From: a virus
IMG/VR virus record: IMGVR_UViG_3300030406_002001
Coordinates: 3,850-67,849 of that record
Reading direction: 5' to 3' (one strand)
DNA length: 64,000 nt
Position 1 is the stretch's first letter, and each line of letters begins with the position of its first letter. The notes beneath the pieces were generated by a model. That model saw only the letters and a program-made list of their open reading frames with translations. It made no database searches and was not told the origin of the DNA. Positions 3,001 through 47,393 of the stretch are shown in pieces. Both the position numbers and the translations under genes were made by a program.

Positions 3001-4067
3001 TTACCATTTTCTATATCTTTTAAAACTTTAAATTCATCAACTAATTTTTTTATTTTGGTTGTCGCATTTTCTGTAAGTGTTTTATTAAAAACATTTATAT
3101 TAATACTTGCAGCTTCTTGACCACTAACAGGGTCTTTTAATACATCTTGAACTACATCAGAAAGACTTTCTTTTGTATTAACCATTCTATTTACTGCCAT
3201 TTGTGTAGCTTTAGCACCTATTCCTAATGTACCTACTAATAAAAGATTATCTTGTAATTGTTGTTTTGAAGGTAATGTCAATTTACCTTTTTCTACACTT
3301 TCAATAGCTGTTCCCATACCTGTCATACCTAAATATGTTCCTGCAAGTGTAGTCATAAAATTTTTGCTTAATCCAATTTTGTGTAAAGCAGCAGGTCCTG
3401 CTATAGTTCCTGCTAACATTGCACCACCTTTTAATCCTTCACCTACTCCATGATCTACAAACAAATCCCACCATTGTTTAAATCCTGTAACTTTGCCAGA
3501 TTTTAAAGATTGAAAATATGTTTCTTTTATTGAATCATTTACAAACCCACCTGCAAATGCAGCTTTTGTAAATTGTCTTGTTAATAAATATGGTGCAGCT
3601 CCAATCAATCCTGTTGGTGTATCTCCTACAATAGTACCTATAGACCTAACTAATCTTTCTATTGCACCATCATCTGTTAATTGATTGCCAAATGCTTTTC
3701 TCCAATCATATCCTTGCTCACCTTTTGTATGATATTGTAACATTAAATTAGTTGTACTTTGCCCAAAACCTTCTCTAAAATAATCATATATTTGACTTTC
3801 TTCACCTACTGCCCAAGTTTTTACTTTATTTGCTTTATTTCTAATTACATTAATTCTTTCTTTCCAATAATTTCTAATTGGATTCATAACATCATCTTCT
3901 TCTTTTAATTTTTGTGTTCTATAAATTCCTAATTCTTTAGCAATCTGGTCATCATCAAAACCACCTTGCCTAAGAATATTTATTGATTTTCTTTTATGCT
4001 CGTTTATTTGTTCTTCAGATGCACCACCTTGTTTAAGTAAATTTATATGTTCTTCTATTGCTCCCAT
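1..4067 (-). CDS. Large internal virion (ejection) protein, >1350 aa, runs off window; LPD38-like C-terminal region
   Basis: Not in ORF track; ATG at 4067 (MGAIEEHINLLKQGG), same frame still open at the window edge; WEKLNFWVF...RKPWELG motif; follows other ejection genes. Confidence 0.8.
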   Translation of the reverse strand, partial: MGAIEEHINLLKQGGASEEQINEHKRKSINILRQGGFDDDQIAKELGIYRTQKLKEEDDVMNPIRNYWKERINVIRNKANKVKTWAVGEESQIYDYFREGFGQSTTNLMLQYHTKGEQGYDWRKAFGNQLTDDGAIERLVRSIGTIVGDTPTGLIGAAPYLLTRQFTKAAFAGGFVNDSIKETYFQSLKSGKVTGFKQWWDLFVDHGVGEGLKGGAMLAGTIAGPAALHKIGLSKNFMTTLAGTYLGMTGMGTAIESVEKGKLTLPSKQQLQDNLLLVGTLGIGAKATQMAVNRMVNTKESLSDVVQDVLKDPVSGQEAASININVFNKTLTENATTKIKKLVDEFKVLKDIENGKGPKKEDLEKQKQELEEESFRANTIETFRDIENRSRDIDNQIEEINLRETDVPDNQVRVSRRQNEIREELREFGEKIGSNDAEVVPPRNYEDEDMKAMSEFYKPEKVKIEKEADGVFNKLDKFMFDRIDSIFPVKKIEKLAEKEGAEKNFVYEQITNLAGVVGKAMSAINGSGTKSFFDADKITGKSLYEILKPLEYKNGRSKYDEFNIYKISKRVIELEGRGIVTGMPIERARNIVTKYGDEYENISKEYDEFTQRILDYMEDAGVITKKLKESIISANKDFVPFYKLFDPKFKGNKSQGGMPIKQIVGVERIQKKVRDLEEKINTETDEVVKNQLQKQYNATKKEYLEKVSVIDPIEMTMKNTMQMIMLAERNVAMVDFIKTIESAKGKNPDAFKFIEKVKPAIQETTATRKEIETAFPQLKNLSDDQINNLSIFRAKPKDLTNTQISIMRNGKREIWDLGSEVLVQAIKRDKQFNKLYGLIDVDGAVFKTAEIVTQVKRFGITVHPKFTLANFLAQELTMPFISKTTYIPVVDGLKGIVWQVKNKKIEREFVESGQAQSTFVDADRQLFSANKMREQIEKRDYIHTLDSKSPISSLLYPFEVMKRAGARVGRLAQRPTVLTEQAPRIVASKQLKNKLLKDNQNLPVNQRLTKRQIDTLSTYEGRDIIDFSRRGARMEAASRTNAFLNAGIQGLYKLARTATNPKQITRFAMTGFFGMTVPTIINWYANRDSETYKNGTSDWEKLNFWVFVVNEEKGQYFTVRKPWELGWLFATLPEKMLNYAYKTDKDYVNKMEKTWFEGAWSYFSNFIPVTDMFMPYFEEGFNRNMYTKRPIVSRSNENKLAEFQETPYTSEVAKKIGDGIRGIGNFIGIEGRNYGSPVIIDHYINAYTATLGRDVIAGLDAIIKKFDKDAKDYIKPWSDETFDKLTKAPVANYFFRRTKLSAEPISKYWQNYKKIRKYQGQVTELIEKGQIQKAREIVGDFEVGLVQIMNKHTEK

Positions 4068-6225: not shown

Positions 6226-8718
6226 TTAATCCACAGTTAAAAGGGTTCCTGTTATTCCTAATATTGTCATAGGTAAAGGTTGAGTTTGTTTGACAGTAAT
6301 CTGCCCATCTCTATCCCATCCTAAATTTGTTACTCGTTTATCTCCTGTAAACTCTGGTATATTCTGACCCATAGGTGTTGCAGATGATCTAAATGGTAAT
6401 TGATCATCATTTATTGTTGCACCCACTGTATTCAAAAATCTTACCATAACCTCATTATATCTTTTTTTCCTACCTTGTGAAGTACCTGCTTGACCTCCAA
6501 ACTCTGGTTTTAATGTTTTTAATGTACTTGTAAATCCTAGTCCTACATCTATTGTTTTCGTAGATAATTCTGTTGGTATATCTACAGTTATTGCACCATT
6601 TGTTACTGTTTGTGGTGGATATACTGCATCTCCTATAACTATTTGTACCTTTTCTCCTTCAAGATGATCTAATGATGTAACACTTGTAGAAGATGAGTTT
6701 ACTGTGCCTGTTAGATAACTATCCATATTTGCAGTAGAACTTAAATATTCTACATATTGTACTGTCGAACCATTTATTAGTCGTTCAATAATTACCCATA
6801 CTTGATCTTCACCACCTTCTGGAATACTTGCTACACTTTTTGCTTTTGAATGTGTTTCACTTGTAACTGCTAGTCTTGTAGAATCTGTTGTTTCAACTGT
6901 TAAAAGACCTGTAGCTTGTGGACTTGTTTCTGTAATTGTTACAATGTTTGCAGCAGGGTTTGCTACTGTAAAATCTGCATGAGCATTTATTGCTGTAAAT
7001 ATATTATCTGCTGTTGTATTGTTATTTATATTTGGTCTAAATCCTAAAGAACTTGAAGGACTACTACTCCCTGCTGTTTCTGATGTAAATGTTACTTTTG
7101 ATCCGTCTGATTTTGTTAACACAATACGACTACCTACAGGTATATTTGCATAGTCTGTAACTGTAACTGTTGCTGATCCTGTTTTACCACCAAATATATG
7201 TCTATGCCATGCTACTACATTTTCTTCTCTTTGATATGTCATGCCTAAAAACACACCATCTTCTCGTATTGCCCAATAAACAGAATCTGGTTCTTGTGCA
7301 AAATCTACTTCTGTAATACCATTACCTGTAATATGTTCTGATAATATAGTCATATCTGGTGCAGAATATGCATCATCTTCAAACTTATAATAAAATTCTC
7401 TAATTTTTTTTTGTTGTCTTTGAATAAATAAAATAACATTACCAATCTGTATTGGTCTTGCTGGATATACACCATAAGTTGTTTGTTGTGCAATATTTAC
7501 ATTATCTGGTTTTAGTGGTTCTCCTGTTGGTCTACCTACTTTATATTCTGACCCTGCTGTACCAACAATCAAATCTTTAGATGGTGCTAACCATCTGATT
7601 GTATTTACCTTATTTGCTGCAATAGTATATATAAATGCATCTGCTGCATCTGCATCTCCTTCATCAAAATTATCATATAATCCAGATTGTGAAGCCCATA
7701 TTGTTTGTGGAAAGTTTGTACTTCCACCATATAAAAGTCTTTGCTCAAAAAAACTAACAGCTCTTGGAAATCCTGTTGTATTTGAATATGCACCTAGTTG
7801 CCATTCTTTTGTTGCACTTCCTGTTCCTACTGCTGTAAATATTTCATAAGTTACAACTGTTGCACTTGTAAATCCTGTTATTTTTCCATGACCACCTTTT
7901 ACTTTTACCAATCTACCAACATCTGTACTTGCAAATAAATCTGCACTAGCTGTTAATGTCCTGCCTGTGCCTACTGTTGTTGCACTCGTTGTCAAAGTTG
8001 TAGAAGTTGTATTTTCATCTAAATATGGACCTTTTTCAAAATCAACATCTGAAATACTCCAATTAGTATGACCTGTTCTAGTCAATTTTGTTGGTTCATG
8101 TGATGGATGCACTAAATACATAACATCTGCTGATTGAGCAAATTGTATTTCAGATAACTGAGATGATGTGTATTCTGTTGTTATTTCATATACTTTGGCT
8201 GCTGTACCACCAGAAGTATAAGTTGTATAATTAGTTGAATTTACTCCAGATAACTCAAATGTGTTGGTTGTTACATTTGCTATTGTATATCTTCTTGCAT
8301 TGACTTCTGTCATACCACCCACATCATTTAACCATATATGATCTCCATTAGAATATCCATGTGATGATACTGTAACAACAGCCGGATTTGCCTTTGTTAT
8401 TGCTGTTACTGTTTTTGTTGCTTCTGTTATTTGACCATTATCTTTATAAAATCTTATATATAAATTACCAAACTCTAATATATACGATTGTTCTATATTA
8501 AACTCAAAAGGTATCAATCTAGTTGCATTAGCTGAATTTTTTACCTCACACACAAACCTAGAACCATATCTTCTTGTCGTACCACCCTGTGGAAATACTA
8601 TCATATTCTCCATAGTTTCAACTGCATTGTTGTATTTTTTAAAATCTACTTGACCAAATAATTTAGGTGAAATTTCACCGGATGTAAAATTTGTTTGAAA
8701 TGGATGAACTCTTGCCAT
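6226..8718 (-). CDS. Tail tubular protein B / nozzle
   Basis: QTNFTSGEISP N-terminus, FPRAVSFFEQRL, AWHRH and QPLPMTILGI motifs; FCCH-like insertion. Confidence 0.9.
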   Translation of the reverse strand: MARVHPFQTNFTSGEISPKLFGQVDFKKYNNAVETMENMIVFPQGGTTRRYGSRFVCEVKNSANATRLIPFEFNIEQSYILEFGNLYIRFYKDNGQITEATKTVTAITKANPAVVTVSSHGYSNGDHIWLNDVGGMTEVNARRYTIANVTTNTFELSGVNSTNYTTYTSGGTAAKVYEITTEYTSSQLSEIQFAQSADVMYLVHPSHEPTKLTRTGHTNWSISDVDFEKGPYLDENTTSTTLTTSATTVGTGRTLTASADLFASTDVGRLVKVKGGHGKITGFTSATVVTYEIFTAVGTGSATKEWQLGAYSNTTGFPRAVSFFEQRLLYGGSTNFPQTIWASQSGLYDNFDEGDADAADAFIYTIAANKVNTIRWLAPSKDLIVGTAGSEYKVGRPTGEPLKPDNVNIAQQTTYGVYPARPIQIGNVILFIQRQQKKIREFYYKFEDDAYSAPDMTILSEHITGNGITEVDFAQEPDSVYWAIREDGVFLGMTYQREENVVAWHRHIFGGKTGSATVTVTDYANIPVGSRIVLTKSDGSKVTFTSETAGSSSPSSSLGFRPNINNNTTADNIFTAINAHADFTVANPAANIVTITETSPQATGLLTVETTDSTRLAVTSETHSKAKSVASIPEGGEDQVWVIIERLINGSTVQYVEYLSSTANMDSYLTGTVNSSSTSVTSLDHLEGEKVQIVIGDAVYPPQTVTNGAITVDIPTELSTKTIDVGLGFTSTLKTLKPEFGGQAGTSQGRKKRYNEVMVRFLNTVGATINDDQLPFRSSATPMGQNIPEFTGDKRVTNLGWDRDGQITVKQTQPLPMTILGITGTLLTVD

Positions 8719-9299
8719 TAAGGTGCTCTAAAATCAGTAAACACAGTTGATATAATACTATCAGTTGTTCCCTCTGTGCTATCAAGACTTCTTGCTTCTG
8801 ATAACTTTCTTTCAAATAACCTTTGCATTTGTGCTTGTAATGTTGTGCTATTTGTTACAGGATATGCTAAATCTACTGCAAGTTTTGCAGTAAGTGTATC
8901 AACAAACATAGAATCAAATAAACTTGGATCAGTAACTCTTGCAATATAAGTTATTTTTGCTTCCCCTTCATCTGTAAGTAATACCCTGCCTTGACCTGCT
9001 AAATTTTCTATTTTAAATTCAAAATCTTCAAACTCCATTTTTAATACTCGTAAACAAAATGGATCAGTTGGCAATGCAAATTGATTAGCATATTCAAATG
9101 CAGGTGCTGTTGATAACTTTGCTAAATTTGCTCTGTTAATAGCAAAATTCCAAGTATGTGATCTTAATACTGCATCTCTTGATGGTGCATAAAATGCATT
9201 ACATAATCTTGCTCTTTCACTATCTTCTGTTAATGATGCGATAGGACTATCGCCCAACCTTCGTAGAGCATTTGAACATATTGATACTTCTGTTGCCAT
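8718..9299 (-). CDS. Tail tubular protein A / adaptor
   Basis: EVSICSNALRRLGDSPI, HTWNFA, YANQFALP motifs. Confidence 0.9.
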   Translation of the reverse strand: MATEVSICSNALRRLGDSPIASLTEDSERARLCNAFYAPSRDAVLRSHTWNFAINRANLAKLSTAPAFEYANQFALPTDPFCLRVLKMEFEDFEFKIENLAGQGRVLLTDEGEAKITYIARVTDPSLFDSMFVDTLTAKLAVDLAYPVTNSTTLQAQMQRLFERKLSEARSLDSTEGTTDSIISTVFTDFRAP

Positions 9300-9316: not shown

Positions 9317-9341
9317 AAAAAGGGGGTCTTTTGCAACCCCC
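9317..9341 (-). terminator. Intrinsic terminator after capsid genes
   Basis: Minus strand GGGGGT-loop-ACCCCC followed by TTTTT. Confidence 0.7.
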
Positions 9342-9359: not shown

Positions 9360-9905
9360 CTAATCAGTTATATAAGTAACTACCATAGTAATATCACCTG
9401 CTGCTGCTGTTGCTGCAACATTAGACATTGTTAGGGCAATTCTTAATGGAACTCCGGGGTCTTCTGATAGACCACCATCTTCCCATGCATGATTAGCTAT
9501 TGCATTGACATTCTTTGCTTCAAATGCAACTTCAACACCTGCTGTGTTTGCTGCTTGTAAAGTTGTTATAGCTGTTGCATAACAATCTTCATCAATAACT
9601 GCATCTGCTGCTGTTTCAGTACCACCAATAGTAAACTTACTAGCTCCATTATACAGACCTACATTGGCTGCTAGTGTTGGTGATCCATTTGAATCAAGAT
9701 CATCATTGTAAAGTTTTATTGACATGACTTTTGCATTTGATGGGATTTGTGCCATCATGATTACATCATCATTATCAATATCACCTGTACCTGCTGCAAT
9801 AGTATCAGCAAATACTCTCATCTTGCCATGAACACTTCCGACTTCGGAAATAACTCTAGGAGATGCATCTAGGTTTGTAATTTCTACAGATTTAGCTGTT
9901 GCCAT
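9360..9905 (-). CDS. Capsid cement/decoration protein
   Basis: Ala/Thr/Gly-rich beta protein immediately after MCP. Confidence 0.6.
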   Translation of the reverse strand: MATAKSVEITNLDASPRVISEVGSVHGKMRVFADTIAAGTGDIDNDDVIMMAQIPSNAKVMSIKLYNDDLDSNGSPTLAANVGLYNGASKFTIGGTETAADAVIDEDCYATAITTLQAANTAGVEVAFEAKNVNAIANHAWEDGGLSEDPGVPLRIALTMSNVAATAAAGDITMVVTYITD

Positions 9906-9915
9906 GATTTACCTC

Positions 9916-10779
9916 CTATGACTCTTGACAAGCAATTTCTACAACTTTTTCGTCTTCTACTCTCGTAGCTCCGATTGTCATTGATAAAAATACTTGTGTT
10001 GCATAGTTCTTGTCAGCTCTTTCAGAGATTCTTGTTTCAATATCTCTGCCAAGTGCAAGACCTATTGCAGATTGACAAAAACCAAGTACAGACCTGTTAC
10101 CATCACTATCTGTGCTTAGTCGTTCACTTCTAATAAAGTTAAATCCTAAAAAAGTATCTAACTCACCTTGTACTAATGCTTTAACAGAATTAAAATCTGC
10201 TGAAGTAATAGTTGTGCTACCTAGTAAATCACTAAGTTGTTTTGCTGACACCACCATGAATCTTGACTCATCTGGGTCAACATCAGCAGCATCTAATACT
10301 TCTTTTGCACTAATTAATTTTGCTAGAGTTAATCCAGCAGAAGCATGAACAATTTTCTGTCCGGAAGGTAATGCCACAGTTGTACCACCAGATACACCAC
10401 CAAAAGCATTTCCACTAGCAGCAGCAATAATTGCATCATCCATTGCTCTACCCATTGCCCAAGCACCACTCATTGCATACTCAGATTGTGGGGAGATTAA
10501 CATTCTAACTTTGTCCTCTTGGTCAATCAGATCAGCCCAATCATAATCATCCATAGTAACTTTCCTTCTTGAGTGAGGGGTATCAACTCTAGGTGTATCA
10601 CTATGTCTGGATGTTCTTTTAAGAGCAGCAGTATCACCAATTCTTTCAAAAAAGTGCGATTTACCTGTTACAGTTTCTGTTCTTACTGCATCTCTTAATC
10701 TTGAACCTTTCTGTTGTGCCAAATGGAACACATTGCTTTTATATTGTTCTACAAAAGCTGTAGTAATTTGAACACTCAT
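9916..10779 (-). CDS. Major capsid protein (BPP-1-like HK97 fold)
   Basis: ITTAFVEQY...QQKGSRLR, DWADLID, GATRVEDEKVVEI; strong AGGAG RBS. Confidence 0.92.
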   Translation of the reverse strand: MSVQITTAFVEQYKSNVFHLAQQKGSRLRDAVRTETVTGKSHFFERIGDTAALKRTSRHSDTPRVDTPHSRRKVTMDDYDWADLIDQEDKVRMLISPQSEYAMSGAWAMGRAMDDAIIAAASGNAFGGVSGGTTVALPSGQKIVHASAGLTLAKLISAKEVLDAADVDPDESRFMVVSAKQLSDLLGSTTITSADFNSVKALVQGELDTFLGFNFIRSERLSTDSDGNRSVLGFCQSAIGLALGRDIETRISERADKNYATQVFLSMTIGATRVEDEKVVEIACQES

Positions 10780-10819
10780 TACAGTTCTCCTTAATAAAAT
10801 TAATATAATAATTTATGCA

Positions 10820-10892
10820 GTTTTTGTCCTAAAAAAGGGAAACCTCGTTTATAGTCGTTAGACTTTATATACTGTTATCCGTAAGGGCAGTA
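10820..10892 (-). promoter_or_regulatory. Structured MCP 5' leader with two CCC...GG-RYAA internal-loop hairpins
   Basis: TACTG-CCC-TTAC-GG-ATAA-CAGTA and GTTT-CCC-TTTTTTA-GG-ACAA-AAAC; same motif before phage B MCP. Confidence 0.65.
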
Positions 10893-10903
10893 CACACAAA
10901 AAT

Positions 10904-10912
10904 ATTATATCA
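10904..10912 (-). promoter_or_regulatory. Extended -10 promoter for MCP
   Basis: TGATATAAT on minus strand just after scaffold stop. Confidence 0.55.
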
Positions 10913-10919
10913 TACTTTT

Positions 10920-11750
10920 TTAAGTATTACCATATACTTTTTCATGTAGTTGTCGCATTTTTTCTACAGCAGGTTGATGATCCTTATGTCTAGGGTTGTG
11001 ATAAGGATGATCTGGATTATTAAAAGTATCTTGTATTTCTTGTTTTGCATCTAATGGTGATGATGCTAAAGTGTTATTTTGTGTATTTTGTGCCATATCT
11101 TCAGTAATATCTTTACCTAATCTAGCAAATAAACGGATAACAGCAGGATGATTCCCTGCTTCTGTATTCATTAAATCTTTTATTTCATTATCACCATACA
11201 CATCAATAGCTCTTTTTGCATTACGAATTTGGCTATCATAGTCATAACCCCATTCTTTTTTAAGCATAGCTTCGGTTTCTTGTTTTTGCACATCTACTTG
11301 TGATGCATACATATCTCCTTGATTCTTTATAGATTCCATTTGATAATTAACAAGACCTTCTACCTGTTGTTGGTTTAAACCCATTTGATGAGCTACATTC
11401 TTAAACTGACTTATCTGATCTTGGGTAAAATATGCAGAATAATCTTCTGGCACATTTACTTCATATTTATCAGCAGCTTCTGGTCTACCTAGTTTATTGT
11501 AGACTTCCATTCTTTCTTCATCAGTTTTAGGTATAGGAATACGATTACCTAATACTTTTTGCTGATGTACTACTGTTTTAGCTAATGACTCTACATCTTT
11601 AAAATTAGATAATGTAGGATCATTTTTTAAATCTTCTGGTAAGTTTGATCTCCAATCTTGATTATCACTTACAGTAGACCCTAAAACTGTATTATCTTCT
11701 ACAGGTTGTTCTACAGGGTTACCTTCTGTTGTGGTCGTTTCTTCAATCAT
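10920..11750 (-). CDS. Capsid scaffolding protein
   Basis: Acidic N-terminus, WRSNLPEDL, LGRPE, EWG, GNHPAVIR motifs; upstream of MCP. Confidence 0.85.
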   Translation of the reverse strand: MIEETTTTEGNPVEQPVEDNTVLGSTVSDNQDWRSNLPEDLKNDPTLSNFKDVESLAKTVVHQQKVLGNRIPIPKTDEERMEVYNKLGRPEAADKYEVNVPEDYSAYFTQDQISQFKNVAHQMGLNQQQVEGLVNYQMESIKNQGDMYASQVDVQKQETEAMLKKEWGYDYDSQIRNAKRAIDVYGDNEIKDLMNTEAGNHPAVIRLFARLGKDITEDMAQNTQNNTLASSPLDAKQEIQDTFNNPDHPYHNPRHKDHQPAVEKMRQLHEKVYGNT

Positions 11751-11943
11751 TTTTTTGCTCCTTTAATAGATTGATTATTCGTATTATAACAGCTCGTTGA
11801 CCTTCCTTATATGCTGTTTCATAAGGACAACTATCAAACGAACTTCTATGATAATAAGCAGACTTTAAATCTGCTAATACTTCCTTCCCTTCTCCAGAGT
11901 CAAAAGTAATTCTGTACATTTTTTGTAATTCTTTTAGTTCCAT
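11743..11943 (-). CDS. Bbp19-like head protein
   Basis: FDSGEGKEVLADL...AYKEGQRAV; between portal and scaffold. Confidence 0.75.
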   Translation of the reverse strand: MELKELQKMYRITFDSGEGKEVLADLKSAYYHRSSFDSCPYETAYKEGQRAVIIRIINLLKEQKND

Positions 11944-44013: not shown

Positions 44014-44631
44014 TTATGACGAAGATGGAACTACAGCTGTAATGCCATTCAACGCTCCTCTTTGTCTTACTTCTATTAACAAACTACTTCTTAGTTTTCT
44101 TGTTGTTTGGGTTTGTGATTCTGTTGCTCGTGCAACCTGTAATTGTAGTAATGCTCTTTTTTGATATAAAACAGACAGATTGTCATTTCTTGCTATAGCA
44201 CCTGCAAATAATGATGCTAATTCAAACTTAAGTATTTCAGTAAAATATGGTGGCATATCATTTTCATGTGGTCTAAATGTATAATCACATACTACTGTAT
44301 CTGCTGTAGATGTATTTGTAAAAATAAAATCACCATATCTATCAAATACAATAACATTATCGCTTACTGTACACGTATGTATAAGTATTGCATCTGCAGG
44401 TATTGCATATGAAGATTCAAATCTATCTAACGGGTCTACTGTACTTTTAGATAATACTGCTTGTTTACTTGCAAATCTCCATCTTGCTCGAGTTAAATGT
44501 CCTTTAAGTGTTGATTCATAAAGCTGATTTGCTACTTGACTTTCAGTTGTATTGTCAGTAAATGACGCAATTGTATTTGCTCCAACTAAAATTAGTGCTT
44601 GATTACATATGTCTATATTTGTTACTGCCAT
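44014..44631 (-). CDS. Tail tubular protein A / adaptor
   Basis: IDICNQALILVGA, RWRFA, MPPYF. Confidence 0.88.
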   Translation of the reverse strand: MAVTNIDICNQALILVGANTIASFTDNTTESQVANQLYESTLKGHLTRARWRFASKQAVLSKSTVDPLDRFESSYAIPADAILIHTCTVSDNVIVFDRYGDFIFTNTSTADTVVCDYTFRPHENDMPPYFTEILKFELASLFAGAIARNDNLSVLYQKRALLQLQVARATESQTQTTRKLRSSLLIEVRQRGALNGITAVVPSSS

Positions 44632-44665: not shown

Positions 44666-44914
44666 TTATGTTCCGTTGGTTGTTGTTACGGTTGTAGCTC
44701 TACTTGCAGAAGTTACAACTAACATATCAACTGTTCTTGTACCTCCTGTAGCACCAACTACTAAAATAATATCATTTTGCATTAAGCCATTCGTCATATC
44801 ATTAAAGTAGCCAGAACCTGCTATTGTACCAACAGCCTCAGTAGAATGGTATAACCAAAGATTTTGGTCACCTGCTCCACTGATTTTCTTAAAATTAGCT
44901 TTAATTAATGCCAT
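44666..44914 (-). CDS. Small capsid-associated protein
   Basis: 82 aa directly after MCP, AGGAG RBS. Confidence 0.6.
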   Translation of the reverse strand: MALIKANFKKISGAGDQNLWLYHSTEAVGTIAGSGYFNDMTNGLMQNDIILVVGATGGTRTVDMLVVTSASRATTVTTTNGT

Positions 44915-44923
44915 CAGTATCTC

Positions 44924-45748
44924 CTATTCTTGTATTATACATTGAATCATACCTTCACCATCAATCTCAACTGCACCCATACTCATGTAAGATGTAATTA
45001 AGTTTGAAACTTTTTCCGGTATGTAGTTAACTTCAGTTCTAATATCAGAACCCATAGCAAGACCAACTGCTGATTTATGATAGGCATGACAATCTCTGTT
45101 ACTTCCAGAAAGTGTCAATCCAGAATGTGTAAACCACATAAAGCCTAACCATCTCTTTGCAGTAAGACCACCTGCATAAGGTAAATCATTCTCGCCTACA
45201 TATTCTGCTCTTGAGAACTGGTCTATTGTTAGTAAGTCTGCCCAACCTGCAGATGATACAACAAAATATCTTTGTCCATCATCTGGAATATCTCCTGCAC
45301 CAAATGCTTCATAAACAGTTAATGCTTTAGCCAAAGTAAGACCCTGACTATTATGTGCTACATTATTACTGTTTGTACCTGCATCTAATATATCGATAAT
45401 TAGTTGGTCAGTTTTTCTACCTAGTGCAGAAGCCGCACTTTGAGAAAGAACTTGTCTTTCATCAATGTTTGTTTTCAACTCATCTAGTCTATCGACATAA
45501 TCTGCCGCATAGAAATCTGATAGAGATACTTCTACATTATTGTGAGTAATTTCCATAGTTGGAACATTAGCGTGTCTACTTTTTTCAGTAGCAGAGCCTT
45601 TACCCACTTTTTGGAATCTCGCTTGAGAACCCTTAACATTATTAAGCGTTCTGACAGTATTCTTTAATTTTGAGCCCATACGCTGATAAGCCATGTGGAC
45701 TTCACTCTCAAATTGCTTAATAAATGCAGTTGTAATGGAAGTTGCCAT
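44924..45748 (-). CDS. Major capsid protein (BPP-1-like)
   Basis: ITTAFIKQFESEVHMAYQRMGSKL, ALGRKTDQLI. Confidence 0.92.
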   Translation of the reverse strand: MATSITTAFIKQFESEVHMAYQRMGSKLKNTVRTLNNVKGSQARFQKVGKGSATEKSRHANVPTMEITHNNVEVSLSDFYAADYVDRLDELKTNIDERQVLSQSAASALGRKTDQLIIDILDAGTNSNNVAHNSQGLTLAKALTVYEAFGAGDIPDDGQRYFVVSSAGWADLLTIDQFSRAEYVGENDLPYAGGLTAKRWLGFMWFTHSGLTLSGSNRDCHAYHKSAVGLAMGSDIRTEVNYIPEKVSNLITSYMSMGAVEIDGEGMIQCIIQE

Positions 45749-45785
45749 TATATACTCCTTTATTAGTTACTATTAAACAAATTTC

Positions 45786-45851
45786 AAGTTATCCATTTTT
45801 ATTCTTTTGGGTTGCCCAATAACGTGGGCCCAAATGTTTAAGAATGGGCTT
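45786..45851 (-). promoter_or_regulatory. Structured MCP leader with two nested CCC...GG-RYAA motifs
   Basis: AAG-CCC-ATT...AAT-GG-ATAA-CTT enclosing TTTGGG-CCC-ACGTTATT-GG-GCAA-CCCAAA. Confidence 0.65.
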
Positions 45852-46331
45852 TACTCCTCTAAAAACCTTTATATTAGGTTTTTTATAAAAGTATAACATT
45901 TTTTGACCTTTGACAAGTACTGGTGTGTTTTTAAATGTAAATCCTAAAAATTTTAACCATCTTATTGTTTTTGTTTGTTCAAAAGAACAGGTGTTAAACA
46001 AATATGTAAAGTGCTCTTCAACATATCTAACAAAGATAATATTACCTTTACAAAATTTTACAAAGTTAGTAAAAGGCTCTTCTGTTGATAAGAACCAAAT
46101 TTTTCCTGTTGTTTGATGTTTGTAGATTGGGCACACTCCCCACATAGCAATAACTTGATGTTTATTATTAAATAATGAAAAAGTAATTGTATTTTTTTTA
46201 TAATTTCGAAATGGATATAGTAATGCTCTTAACGGGTCATAACCCAAAGATGCTATTTCATATTTATCAAGTTGCTTTAGTTTTGGTGCTAACTCATAGC
46301 AATCGTCTGGAATTGCTATATCCATATACAT
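45789..46331 (-). CDS. T7 gp13-like GNAT-fold virion assembly protein
   Basis: VIAMWGV, GKIWFL, TIRWLKFLGF. Confidence 0.7.
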   Translation of the reverse strand: MYMDIAIPDDCYELAPKLKQLDKYEIASLGYDPLRALLYPFRNYKKNTITFSLFNNKHQVIAMWGVCPIYKHQTTGKIWFLSTEEPFTNFVKFCKGNIIFVRYVEEHFTYLFNTCSFEQTKTIRWLKFLGFTFKNTPVLVKGQKMLYFYKKPNIKVFRGVKPILKHLGPRYWATQKNKNG

Positions 46332-47116
46332 TATCTGTATAGTCTATTAAACGCATCATCAACTTTTTTTACATAACTGTCATCTCTATGTCGTGAATCA
46401 TAGTATCGTGGGTCTTTCATCATACTCCTTACTTCATTAAGTGTTAGTTGATTAACAGGTCTAGCAGAAGGCTGTTTACCACTTATATTATTTTTTGTTA
46501 ATTCAATAATACTTTCTAATACCTCTATGCCTTGTGCAGTTCGTGTAAGTGTTGAATTATCGATTAGGTCTGCTTGTTCTGGTGAAAGATTTGTATCTAA
46601 AAAATTATAAACAGCATCCAAACGTGCATCAACATTTTCACCAAGTGCTTCTATTTCTTTTTCTTCATCTGGTTGACTACTTTGTATCATGTCAACATAT
46701 TTATTTATACCTTCTTGAAACATATCATTATCATAGGCATTTTCATCACAATGATTTTGCCACCATTCCATCATAGGATTTGATAATACCATTTCTTCAG
46801 TTATAGTTTCTGGTAAAGCAGGTAACGTATATTCTTCTGGTTTTTCAGACATTGCTTCTTCTGATAACTCATTAATTAACTCTTCTCTAAATTCTTCTTT
46901 TTTTCCTCCAACAAATTTTTCTAGTTCTGTATACCCTTTTTCTAACTCCTCATGTGTATTAAACTTTCCTAATATTTTTGGTGTAGCTATTTCTTCTGTA
47001 GGTTCTGCAGTAGTTTCATTTGTTTCACGTGGAACATTCTCATTTACTAGCTGTGTTTGTTCCTGCGTTTCTTCAACTATTTGTTGTTCTTCCGCTTGAT
47101 TTTCATCATTTGACAT
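46331..47116 (-). CDS. Capsid scaffolding protein
   Basis: Acidic, LEKGYTELEK, MMKDPRY. Confidence 0.82.
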   Translation of the reverse strand: MSNDENQAEEQQIVEETQEQTQLVNENVPRETNETTAEPTEEIATPKILGKFNTHEELEKGYTELEKFVGGKKEEFREELINELSEEAMSEKPEEYTLPALPETITEEMVLSNPMMEWWQNHCDENAYDNDMFQEGINKYVDMIQSSQPDEEKEIEALGENVDARLDAVYNFLDTNLSPEQADLIDNSTLTRTAQGIEVLESIIELTKNNISGKQPSARPVNQLTLNEVRSMMKDPRYYDSRHRDDSYVKKVDDAFNRLYR

Positions 47117-47393
47117 TTAGTTTCTCCTGTACAATGTTTTGGCTTTTACCTTTATTAATTCTACGTTGTATCAATCCAACCATATATCTTTGACCCTCTA
47201 GATGACGTAATGTTGCATCTGATACTTCGCTACCTGCAACAGCTTCTATAGTAATAGATTTAAGATAATTCATTAATTTTTGTCCATTTTTTGTATTTAG
47301 AACATTTAAAAACAAACTATTTAATTCTGTTTCTTGTTCTGCAGGTCTGGTATAATTATCTAATCCAACAAGATTATTAGAAGCGGATTTCAT
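47106..47393 (-). CDS. Bbp19-like head protein
   Basis: GQKLMNYLKSITI...LRHLEGQRY. Confidence 0.72.
   Translation of the reverse strand: MKSASNNLVGLDNYTRPAEQETELNSLFLNVLNTKNGQKLMNYLKSITIEAVAGSEVSDATLRHLEGQRYMVGLIQRRINKGKSQNIVQEKLNVK

Follow-up and report, generated by a model that had tools for sequence, protein, structure and literature searches.

The leaders of the two major capsid protein (MCP) genes in a 64,000-nt stretch of viral DNA (IMG/VR record IMGVR_UViG_3300030406_002001, positions 3,850–67,849; hereafter the window, numbered from its first letter) each carry two copies of a small RNA module. This module is a structure of the coding-strand RNA whose pairing is preserved through compensatory change; it is specific to MCP leaders and can be used in either hairpin orientation. 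The element as a whole is a cis-acting structured mRNA leader that matches no described RNA family and that probably governs the amount of capsid protein produced. The 67,849-nt record comprises two distinct HTVC010P-like podovirus genomes of ∼34 kb each, in tandem, here called phages A and B, whose nearest cultured relatives are the Pelagibacter phages Baldr (phage A) and Hodr (phage B), both in the wider HTVC010P-like group. At the heart of the unit is a 1 × 4 internal loop, a C opposite A-N-A-A, which separates a short G-C helix (P2, CC/GG) from an outer helix (P1). From 5′ to 3′, each unit of 25–30 nt is built of P1, one pyrimidine that is nearly always C, a P2 of 2–3 G-C pairs closed by a variable hairpin loop, the unpaired A-N-A-A on the 3′ strand, and the second strand of P1. 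Written as two strands, the module is 5′-GG-ANAA-N-3′ opposite 5′-N′-C-CC-3′. A first loop residue that is G can pair with the lone pyrimidine, and a three-residue bulge, YAA, then remains (combinations UCC/GGG, CCC/GGG, and UCC/GGA).

An earlier note, made from the sequence alone, had described four instances just before the MCP starts, and all four were recovered at those positions on the coding (minus) strand. The distal unit of phage A (unit 1; 10866..10896, minus strand), at the predicted 5′ end of the mRNA, reads TGTGTACTG (10896–10888), CCC (10887–10885), TTAC, GG (10880–10879), ATAA (10878–10875), and CAGTATATA (10874–10866). Its P1, TGTGTACTG/CAGTATATA, is a 9-bp helix of which TACTG/CAGTA forms the inner 5 bp, and its P2 is CC/GG. 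The proximal unit of phage A (unit 2; 10819..10844, minus strand) consists of GGTTT (10844–10840), CCC, TTTTTTA, GG, ACAA (10827–10824), and AAACT (10823–10819); its P1, GGTTT/AAACT, includes one G-U pair and lengthens the GTTT/AAAC stem originally proposed. The two units of phage B are nested. The inner unit (45806..45834, minus strand) has TTTGGG (45834–45829), CCC, ACGTTATT, GG, GCAA, and CCCAAA (45811–45806), the first C pairing with the G so that a CAA bulge remains. It is surrounded by the outer unit (45786..45851, minus strand), with AAG (45851–45849), CCC (45848–45846), GG (45794–45793), ATAA (45792–45789), and CTT (45788–45786), in which an insert of 48–50 nt takes the place of the hairpin loop. 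The outer P1 is only 3 bp long in the window’s own B clade, and the TAA stop codon (45791–45789) of the upstream ORF 45789..46331 lies inside the outer ATAA. In this clade, the TTTGGG-CCC 5′ arm has two possible partners within 45783–45834 (minus strand): GG-GCAA-CCCAAA of the inner unit and, by way of three G-U pairs, the GG-ATAA-CTTGAA farther downstream; the second pairing may be an alternative conformer and was not seen in other B clades.

Covariation among related leaders carries the case for an RNA structure. For each MCP, the best 80 of more than 590 relatives in IMG/VR (77–100% protein identity) were taken, giving 160 loci in two groups, A and B; for the tallies of pairs, instances were chosen by their cores alone, with no stem requirement. 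The idea that the closing stems differ in sequence yet pair, while the 1 × 4 loop is fixed, is borne out in these loci. Among 33 distinct distal units of group A, P1 pairs 1 and 2 were paired in 33/33 cases each, with four and five pair types, respectively, pair 3 in 30/33 and pair 4 in 28/33, each of the four positions showing 4–5 pair types. When all 23 group-A units that have a 4-nt loop were aligned at equal length, 94.4% of cells were paired; the figure was 63.8% in shuffles, none of 500 being as high, and 23–46% in slid controls. Two-sided change was found at all five P1 pairs (50 cells). The proximal P1 of group A is nearly invariant (GGTTT/AAACC), so that the evidence for it lies in a few rare variants with compensated changes, GGTAT/ATACC and GGTGT/ATACC. 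Over P1 pairs 1–5, G-U combinations outnumbered A-C combinations by 27 to 7, indicating that the structured strand is the coding strand, as expected for RNA.

In group B, the outer helix was paired at P1 pairs 1–3 in 67/67 distinct leaders, with two to three pair types, and at pair 4 in 60/67. Its P2 is CCC/GG in 55 of these leaders and CCT/AG in the other 12, a fully compensated change between positions ∼50 nt apart. The inner P1 takes different forms in relatives (TCGG/CCGA, TTGG/CCAA, GTTGG/CCAGC, and CTCGG/CTGAG), with an A-G mismatch at pair 3 in 9/43 instances of one B clade; this inner unit is confounded by coding for ..GP.W.T.. in the overlapping frame. Applied to 40 leaders aligned with MAFFT, RNAalifold found the proximal hairpin but of the distal one only P2, since MAFFT had shifted the variable loops against one another. 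Another MAFFT alignment, in which units of differing loop length were combined, came out misaligned and was left unused.

The module is also specific in its placement. In the 160 loci, the core together with a contiguous stem of at least 4 bp was matched 184 times in the 23,802 nt lying 20–170 nt upstream of the MCP start, and 3 times in the 1,119,656 nt (both strands) outside the leaders; the loci being mutually related, 184 versus 3 shows placement and is not to be read as a probability. Both covariation and positional enrichment before MCP genes, on which the earlier note had made its proposal depend, were thus found. Scanning the 64-kb window with hairpin loops of up to 12 nt gave three matches, at the leader sites only, and with loops of up to 60 nt and a P1 of at least 5 bp it gave four, all in the two MCP leaders and one of them the alternative pairing in phage B; 30 shuffles averaged 0.97 matches and never gave more than 2. 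A covariance model of the unit, built from the group-A units with 4-nt loops, ranked unit 1 of phage A (30.1 bits, E 1.4e-6) and unit 2 (15.8 bits, E 0.061) as its first and second matches in the window. In phage Baldr, the two best matches genome-wide were two direct units, both in the MCP leader. The model gave no match to the phage B units at E up to 10 and missed the variant copies of HTVC010P and of a Ralstonia phage at E up to 1, and those were recognised by pattern and by eye. A weak match at 7512–7538 on the minus strand (TAGGTAG-ACC-AACA-GG-AGAA-CCACTA; 13.7 bits, E 0.29), within the 830-aa ORF 6226..8718 and with two non-standard pairs, is probably due to chance.

Two copies per leader were present in every clade examined, in tandem in group A, nested in group B, and as a mirrored plus a direct copy in HTVC010P-type leaders and in the Manatee Spring phage. 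In the HTVC010P type, copy 1 was mirrored in 59 of 60 distinct leaders and consists of P1, A(C/A)AA, UUC, a mostly GNRA-type loop, GAA, C, and P1′. Taken as two strands, (G/A)G-ANAA-N opposite N′-C-C(C/U), it is the module of the window with the other helix capped. Both of its helices covary (P1: GGTAAG/CTTACT, TAGG/CCTA, GTGGG/CCCAC, and others; P2: TTC/GAA, TCC/GGA, CTC/GAG), and some HTVC010P-type relatives retain copy 1 where AT-rich sequence replaces the small upstream ORF. Copy 2, as described by eye, is a direct unit with AGAA or ATAA. A strict scan for it gave matches in 12 of 60 HTVC010P-type leaders, those listed lying away from the proximal unit; copy 2 itself was missed because a step of 1 bp plus a mismatch precedes P1.

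More distant relatives extend the range of variants. A high-GC freshwater podovirus (46.6% MCP identity) has one mirrored and one direct copy, and Ralstonia phage DU_RP_II has a direct copy. In Vibrio phages VP2 and K300, Alteromonas phage ZP6 and several uncultured relatives, ANAA is replaced by GUAG (or GCAG, UCAG), with a local consensus of GGGUAGC opposite GUCC. These GUAG relatives, described here without statistics, have MCPs 28–49% identical to the queries (loci L170 for ZP6, L171 for K300, L172 and L179 for VP2, and L180, L182, L183, and L185) and carry two units downstream of a sigma-70 promoter close to consensus, in the 40–150 nt ahead of the MCP start, copy 1 mirrored and copy 2 direct. 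The second GUAG unit is annotated as a predicted promoter in a paper on a VP2-like Vibrio phage (PMC4802629). ANAA is common to the Pelagibacter phages and the Ralstonia phage, whose hosts are an alphaproteobacterium and a betaproteobacterium, and to the high-GC freshwater phage, and GUAG occurs in both copies in the Vibrio and Alteromonas relatives. Judged from these sequences, loop type tracks the phage lineage and not the host, and the two copies change together. Phage Hodr (OQ414635.1, 5328–5360, minus strand; L191) has one more unit-like site, its third, AAAG-CCC-(10 nt)-GG-ATAA-CTTT (E 4e-4 with the covariance model of the unit), ∼235 nt upstream of the scaffold-like gene and apparently within the preceding ORF; no counterpart was found in the window’s phage B.

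Both phages appear to make a capsid-specific mRNA that runs from a host-type promoter through a folded untranslated leader of ∼100–135 nt, the MCP gene and one small gene to an intrinsic terminator. In phage A, the motifs follow an extended −10 promoter, as previously noted: TGaTATAAT (10904..10912, minus strand), with TG at 10912–10911 and TATAAT at 10909–10904. A weak −35-like TGGTAA is located at 10932–10927, and some group-A relatives have a good −35, TTGGCA. A TGnTAnnnT-like element was aligned in most of 40 group-A relatives. The strict match TAYWMT was missing in 16/58 distinct A leaders; in 36 of the 42 leaders with it, 16–18 nt separate the end of the −10 hexamer from the CCC core. 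With a P1 of 4–9 bp, this spacing places the beginning of P1 within a few nucleotides of the transcript start, itself a prediction from sequence.

Between the two units of phage A is a middle hairpin, AGTC-TAAC-GACT (10853..10864, minus strand), followed by ATAAAC (10852–10847). Relatives have at the same place a hairpin with different stems (AGGCA/TGCCT, GTAGCCG/TGGCTAT; no shuffle control) and then a conserved (T)WTAAAY stretch, the UWUAAAY linker; a hairpin with this stretch was also found in HTVC010P-type leaders. In 22 of the 40 aligned group-A relatives, the window phage not among them, an insert stands between the middle hairpin and unit 2, ∼40–75 nt before the proximal unit (alignment columns 116–139; L021, L030, L034, L036, L039, L043, L044, L077, and others). 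The hairpin of this insert is paired in 22/22 sequences, with compensatory change at 4/4 tested pairs. A crossing 3-bp helix (C-G, G-C, U-G/U-A/C-G) holds in every sequence, with almost no covariation and no two-sided change; if this helix forms, the insert is possibly an H-type pseudoknot.

The AU-rich spacer of phage A (10780..10818, minus strand) contains the Shine-Dalgarno sequence AAGGAG (10792–10787) and leads to the ATG at 10779–10777. The distance from the last unit to the ATG had a median of 35 nt in group A (range 28–101; 58/58 distinct leaders) and of 33 nt in group B (range 24–61; 63/67 distinct leaders), and the ribosome-binding site was unpaired in folds of the A and B leaders. 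The stretches 10793–10818 and 45761–45785 of the window are AU-rich. The heptamer TTAACTT, which forms the core of ‘epsilon’, the translational enhancer of T7 gene 10, is found 6–45 nt before the ATG in 10/58 A, 20/67 B, and 15/60 HTVC010P-type distinct leaders (e.g., L034, L043, and L162), counts to which no background rate is attached.

The leader of group B is ordered as a possible TGtTATACT, a hairpin designated B0, the two nested units and a 33-nt spacer. The candidate extended −10 of phage B (45890..45898, minus strand) is within ORF 45789..46331 and overlaps conserved codons, so that conservation cannot tell a promoter from coding sequence. Hairpin B0, AACCT-AATATAA-AGGTT (45864..45880, minus strand), forms in the minimum-energy fold at the predicted 5′ end of the leader and also lies in the upstream ORF; a hairpin of at least 5 bp occupies this place in 67/67 distinct B leaders, with ∼35 stem sequences (no shuffle control). 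The overlap of the B motifs with the 3′ end of another gene, pointed out previously, is real: they occupy the last codons of ORF 45789..46331, that is, the last ∼30 codons of the phrog_308 gene, a tail outside the family profile, and their cores fall on codons for Pro, Gly-Pro, Trp, and Thr. Clades differ by 3 nt in the inner loop, which together with the codon overlap indicates that protein and RNA constraints are superimposed in the inner B unit.

No family in Rfam, against which the earlier note had suggested a comparison, matched the element. Searches with Rfam 15 at gathering thresholds returned 0 matches over the whole window, and at E up to 10 the two leaders gave chance-level matches only (algC, 15.9 bits versus a cut-off of 33.8; ctRNA_pT181, 25.8 versus 56). 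The MCPs of the window belong to PF19821, a family distinct from PHA00201, the T7-type capsid family. Upstream of PHA00201 major capsid genes, the text of an IMG/VR-wide catalogue reports five candidate structured RNAs (Fremin, Bhatt and Kyrpides, 2023; PMC10690425). As far as that text goes, they are likewise comparative-genomics finds located consistently upstream of phage structural genes, but they belong to a different capsid family and come with no structure or sequence to compare. Literature searches yielded no description of the capsid-leader unit; the candidate tables of PMC10690425 were outside this comparison, and an earlier listing there is possible.

Among described RNAs, the module shares with phage translational operators a small bulged or internal-loop hairpin in a leader, with free helix sequence and fixed unpaired residues. 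Such operators include the MS2 coat protein-replicase hairpin and the T4 RegA and gp32 operators, and P22 scaffold is subject to autoregulation; a free helix with fixed unpaired residues is the usual signature of a protein-recognised RNA. The MS2, RegA, and gp32 operators overlap or abut the ribosome-binding site, whereas the capsid-leader module ends ∼33–35 nt upstream, and unlike them it comes in two copies and in either orientation. The likeness to P22 scaffold autoregulation, the analogy from which the earlier note drew its putative protein-binding translational operator for capsid stoichiometry, is in the matching of structural-protein synthesis to assembly, here proposed; to our knowledge, the RNA target of the P22 control has never been defined. 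The ompA leader, ∼130 nt long and part of a very abundant mRNA, is also similar, with one hairpin at its 5′ end (in the capsid leader, at the predicted 5′ end) and a second just before a ribosome-binding site that is left open; however, its hairpins are not known to share a fixed internal loop, and in the capsid leader the loop is the most conserved feature.

Several RNA motifs were considered and set aside. The kink-turn is likewise a two-strand module usable in either orientation, with a 3–4-nt bulge beside a G-C helix. It requires tandem sheared G-A pairs after the bulge; in the distal units, P1 after the bulge is Watson-Crick or G-U in 33/33, 33/33, and 30/33 cases at pairs 1–3, with many pair types. 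Strand polarity or sequence speaks against the 11-nt tetraloop receptor, loop E and the asymmetric loop of SRP. A 9-nt identity of GGATAACAG to a stretch of 23S rRNA was dismissed, its CAG part being freely covarying P1. The put RNAs of phage HK022 are ∼70 nt long with two bulged stem-loops, putL lying just after PL (PMC9378689). On that description they resemble the capsid leader as cis-acting structured RNAs with bulged stems just downstream of a host-type phage promoter, but put has its stems side by side in a single compact V to which polymerase binds, whereas the capsid-leader units are separated or nested and a strong terminator ends their transcription unit. A position directly after the promoter was found in group A; two adjacent stem-loops within ∼70 nt were not, the units being nested or separated by a hairpin and linker or by the possible pseudoknot insert.

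We tentatively favour, at a little under an even chance, the reading in which the leader offers two docking sites to a trans-acting protein, probably encoded by the phage, that sets the translation or stability of the capsid mRNA. The fixed loop beside free helices, the two copies and the use of either orientation together resemble a protein-recognised module. Loop type that follows lineage, and its concerted change in both copies, point to a single co-evolving and probably phage-encoded partner, rather than to a universal host protein. The two modules would be docking sites for two copies, or a dimer, of that one protein, which would most likely come from the phage head-gene module; the candidates are the head proteins whose conservation parallels that of the leader, namely the capsid, the scaffold and the small Bbp19-like protein. 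By binding, the protein would control how fast the capsid mRNA is translated and/or how long it lasts and match capsid output to assembly, and in phage A unit 1 would additionally sequester the 5′ end of the transcript. With the module ending ∼33–35 nt before the ATG and the ribosome-binding site open, direct occlusion is unlikely, and the effect would fall on ribosome loading, mRNA lifetime or both. A more specific proposal, which we regard as possible yet doubtful, casts the C/ANAA module as the operator in an autogenous circuit, in which a head protein binds the two modules and throttles or boosts capsid synthesis according to the state of assembly, the circuit being conserved across PF19821 podoviruses from SAR11 to Vibrio phages, with ANAA and GUAG loops co-evolving.

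Several observations weigh against a docking element of this kind. In most leaders, the last module ends 24–40 nt upstream of the ATG, outside the Shine-Dalgarno sequence and start codon, and no conserved alternative pairing with the ribosome-binding site was noticed by eye. Folding energies of the whole leaders are ordinary (z = 0.14 and −0.72 for the A and B leaders), z-scores being uninformative for units this small. Overlapping codons explain part of the sequence conservation in group B, and a single-sequence AlphaFold model of the Bbp19-like protein was of low confidence (pLDDT 58). An RNA-RNA contact between the modules would explain the concerted change of the loops just as well.

Such a contact belongs to an explanation that needs no protein, namely a stabilising and translation-enhancing leader like that of ompA, the main rival, which we consider possible but on the whole unlikely. 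Here unit 1 would cap the 5′ end and the leader would block 5′-end-dependent decay, the fold would hold open an AU-rich ribosome landing site at a fixed distance, and the loops would make tertiary contacts, for example with the unpaired A’s of one module docking in the G-C helix of the other. The start of P1 within a few nucleotides of the predicted transcript start, given the −10 spacing of 16–18 nt in 36/42 leaders, is in keeping with this, as are the near-constant 33–35 nt between the last unit and the ATG with an unpaired ribosome-binding site, the T7 gene-10-like TTAACTT in the spacers, the status of the capsid protein as the most abundant virion protein, and the constant presence of two modules whose loop types change together. 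However, a plain stabiliser needs no fixed internal loop, and known self-contained RNA modules tend to one consensus, whereas this one switches between ANAA and GUAG from clade to clade. Equal contact geometry would moreover have to result from tandem, nested and mirrored arrangements alike, and the transcript start on which the capping depends is predicted from sequence. That the leader instead acts on RNA polymerase, as put does, and modifies it against pausing or termination seems improbable: the bulged hairpins are directly downstream of a host-type promoter and the phages apparently use the host polymerase, but the group-A units are ∼25–75 nt apart with elements between them and the B units are nested, leaving no adjacent V-shaped pair, no Rfam family was matched, and the strong intrinsic terminator right after the MCP and one further gene in both phages fits termination that is wanted.

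Mimicry of a host RNA, by which the leader would titrate or recruit a host protein such as a ribosomal protein, is quite improbable. The best match of the unit model in the E. coli rRNA operon, at 358–384, corresponds to 16S positions 287–313, presumably helix 12, the closest look-alike, with a layout of helix, 3-bp helix, 3-nt bulge and GGAUGA. This match is weak (10 bits, E 0.39 in 11 kb), the phage loops have UAA or CAA after GGA, with a C-A or Y-R pair, and not UGA, their hairpin loops are variable and not GNRA, and a universal host partner would not predict the switch from ANAA to GUAG. A ligand- or ion-sensing, riboswitch-like element made of two small aptamer hairpins would account for two small conserved units, much as in the tandem-hairpin guanidine-II riboswitch, but no expression platform, neither a terminator nor an alternative that sequesters the ribosome-binding site, was noticed in the leader folds or the alignment, and the conserved positions are confined to a five-residue internal loop whose sequence varies between clades; we consider it very improbable. 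In group B, the cores lie over codons of the upstream ORF for Pro, Gly-Pro, Trp, and Thr-Thr, which could suggest that there is no RNA element at all, only chance, a DNA-level site or a by-product of coding. This explanation is extremely improbable: group-A units are intergenic, some HTVC010P-type relatives keep copy 1 without the sequence of the small upstream ORF, the helices covary with G-U exceeding A-C, and the 3′ half of the outer B unit lies at or after the stop codon.

HTVC010P-type pelagiphages are among the most abundant viruses of the ocean, and control of their late gene expression is essentially unstudied. The leader precedes the gene that needs the strongest expression, and its architecture recurs in relatives with very different hosts. 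If it is a protein-binding operator, the coupling of tailed-phage capsid synthesis to assembly becomes directly testable, and an autogenous circuit, if true, would be the first case in tailed phages where the RNA target of assembly-coupled capsid regulation is defined. Should it be a self-contained fold, it would add a new motif to the modular internal loops of RNA and supply a stabiliser or enhancer that is portable. Under either reading, it is an addition to catalogues of RNA families and a marker for capsid transcription units in viromes.

The structural genes of both phages are on the minus strand, in the order portal, small Bbp19-like protein (PF25181), scaffold-like protein and MCP (PF19821), with the additional phrog_308 gene ahead of the MCP gene in phage B. 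The MCP genes are at 9916..10779 in phage A (minus strand; PF19821, E 1.2e-90; phrog_3437, E 1.9e-97) and at 44924..45748 in phage B (minus strand; PF19821, E 2.5e-72; phrog_3437). The genes for the Bbp19-like proteins, considered as candidate partners only, lie between portal and scaffold at 11743–11943 (E 3.8e-12) and 47106–47393 (E 1e-5), both on the minus strand; no relative in the PDB and no literature was found for this protein. In phage A, the unit of MCP plus one gene ends at an intrinsic terminator with a 7-bp G+C stem and a T run (9322..9341, minus strand), situated between ORF 9360..9905 and the tail tubular gene 8718..9299; its counterpart in phage B (44643..44660, minus strand) lies between ORF 44666..44914 and ORF 44014..44631. 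Because a strong terminator follows the MCP and one small gene, the capsid gene of both phages is a short unit with its own predicted promoter, in phage B a candidate one, and its own terminator. Gene 10 of T7 is a comparable short capsid unit with its own promoter and terminator. Contigs from RNA libraries (two runs of one study) weakly connect the MCP start with the phage A leader up to 10867 and 10878, and 10896–11126 was covered by none of the metatranscriptome contigs examined. Such contigs cannot reveal transcript ends and may include DNA carry-over, and they were used only for the contiguity of leader and MCP gene. Each of the tandem genomes has its own portal, scaffold, MCP and tail genes and an oppositely oriented early arm. 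IMG/VR rates the record as 100% complete and ‘linear’; the 68-kb record is probably a chimeric or concatenated assembly, and not a single phage.

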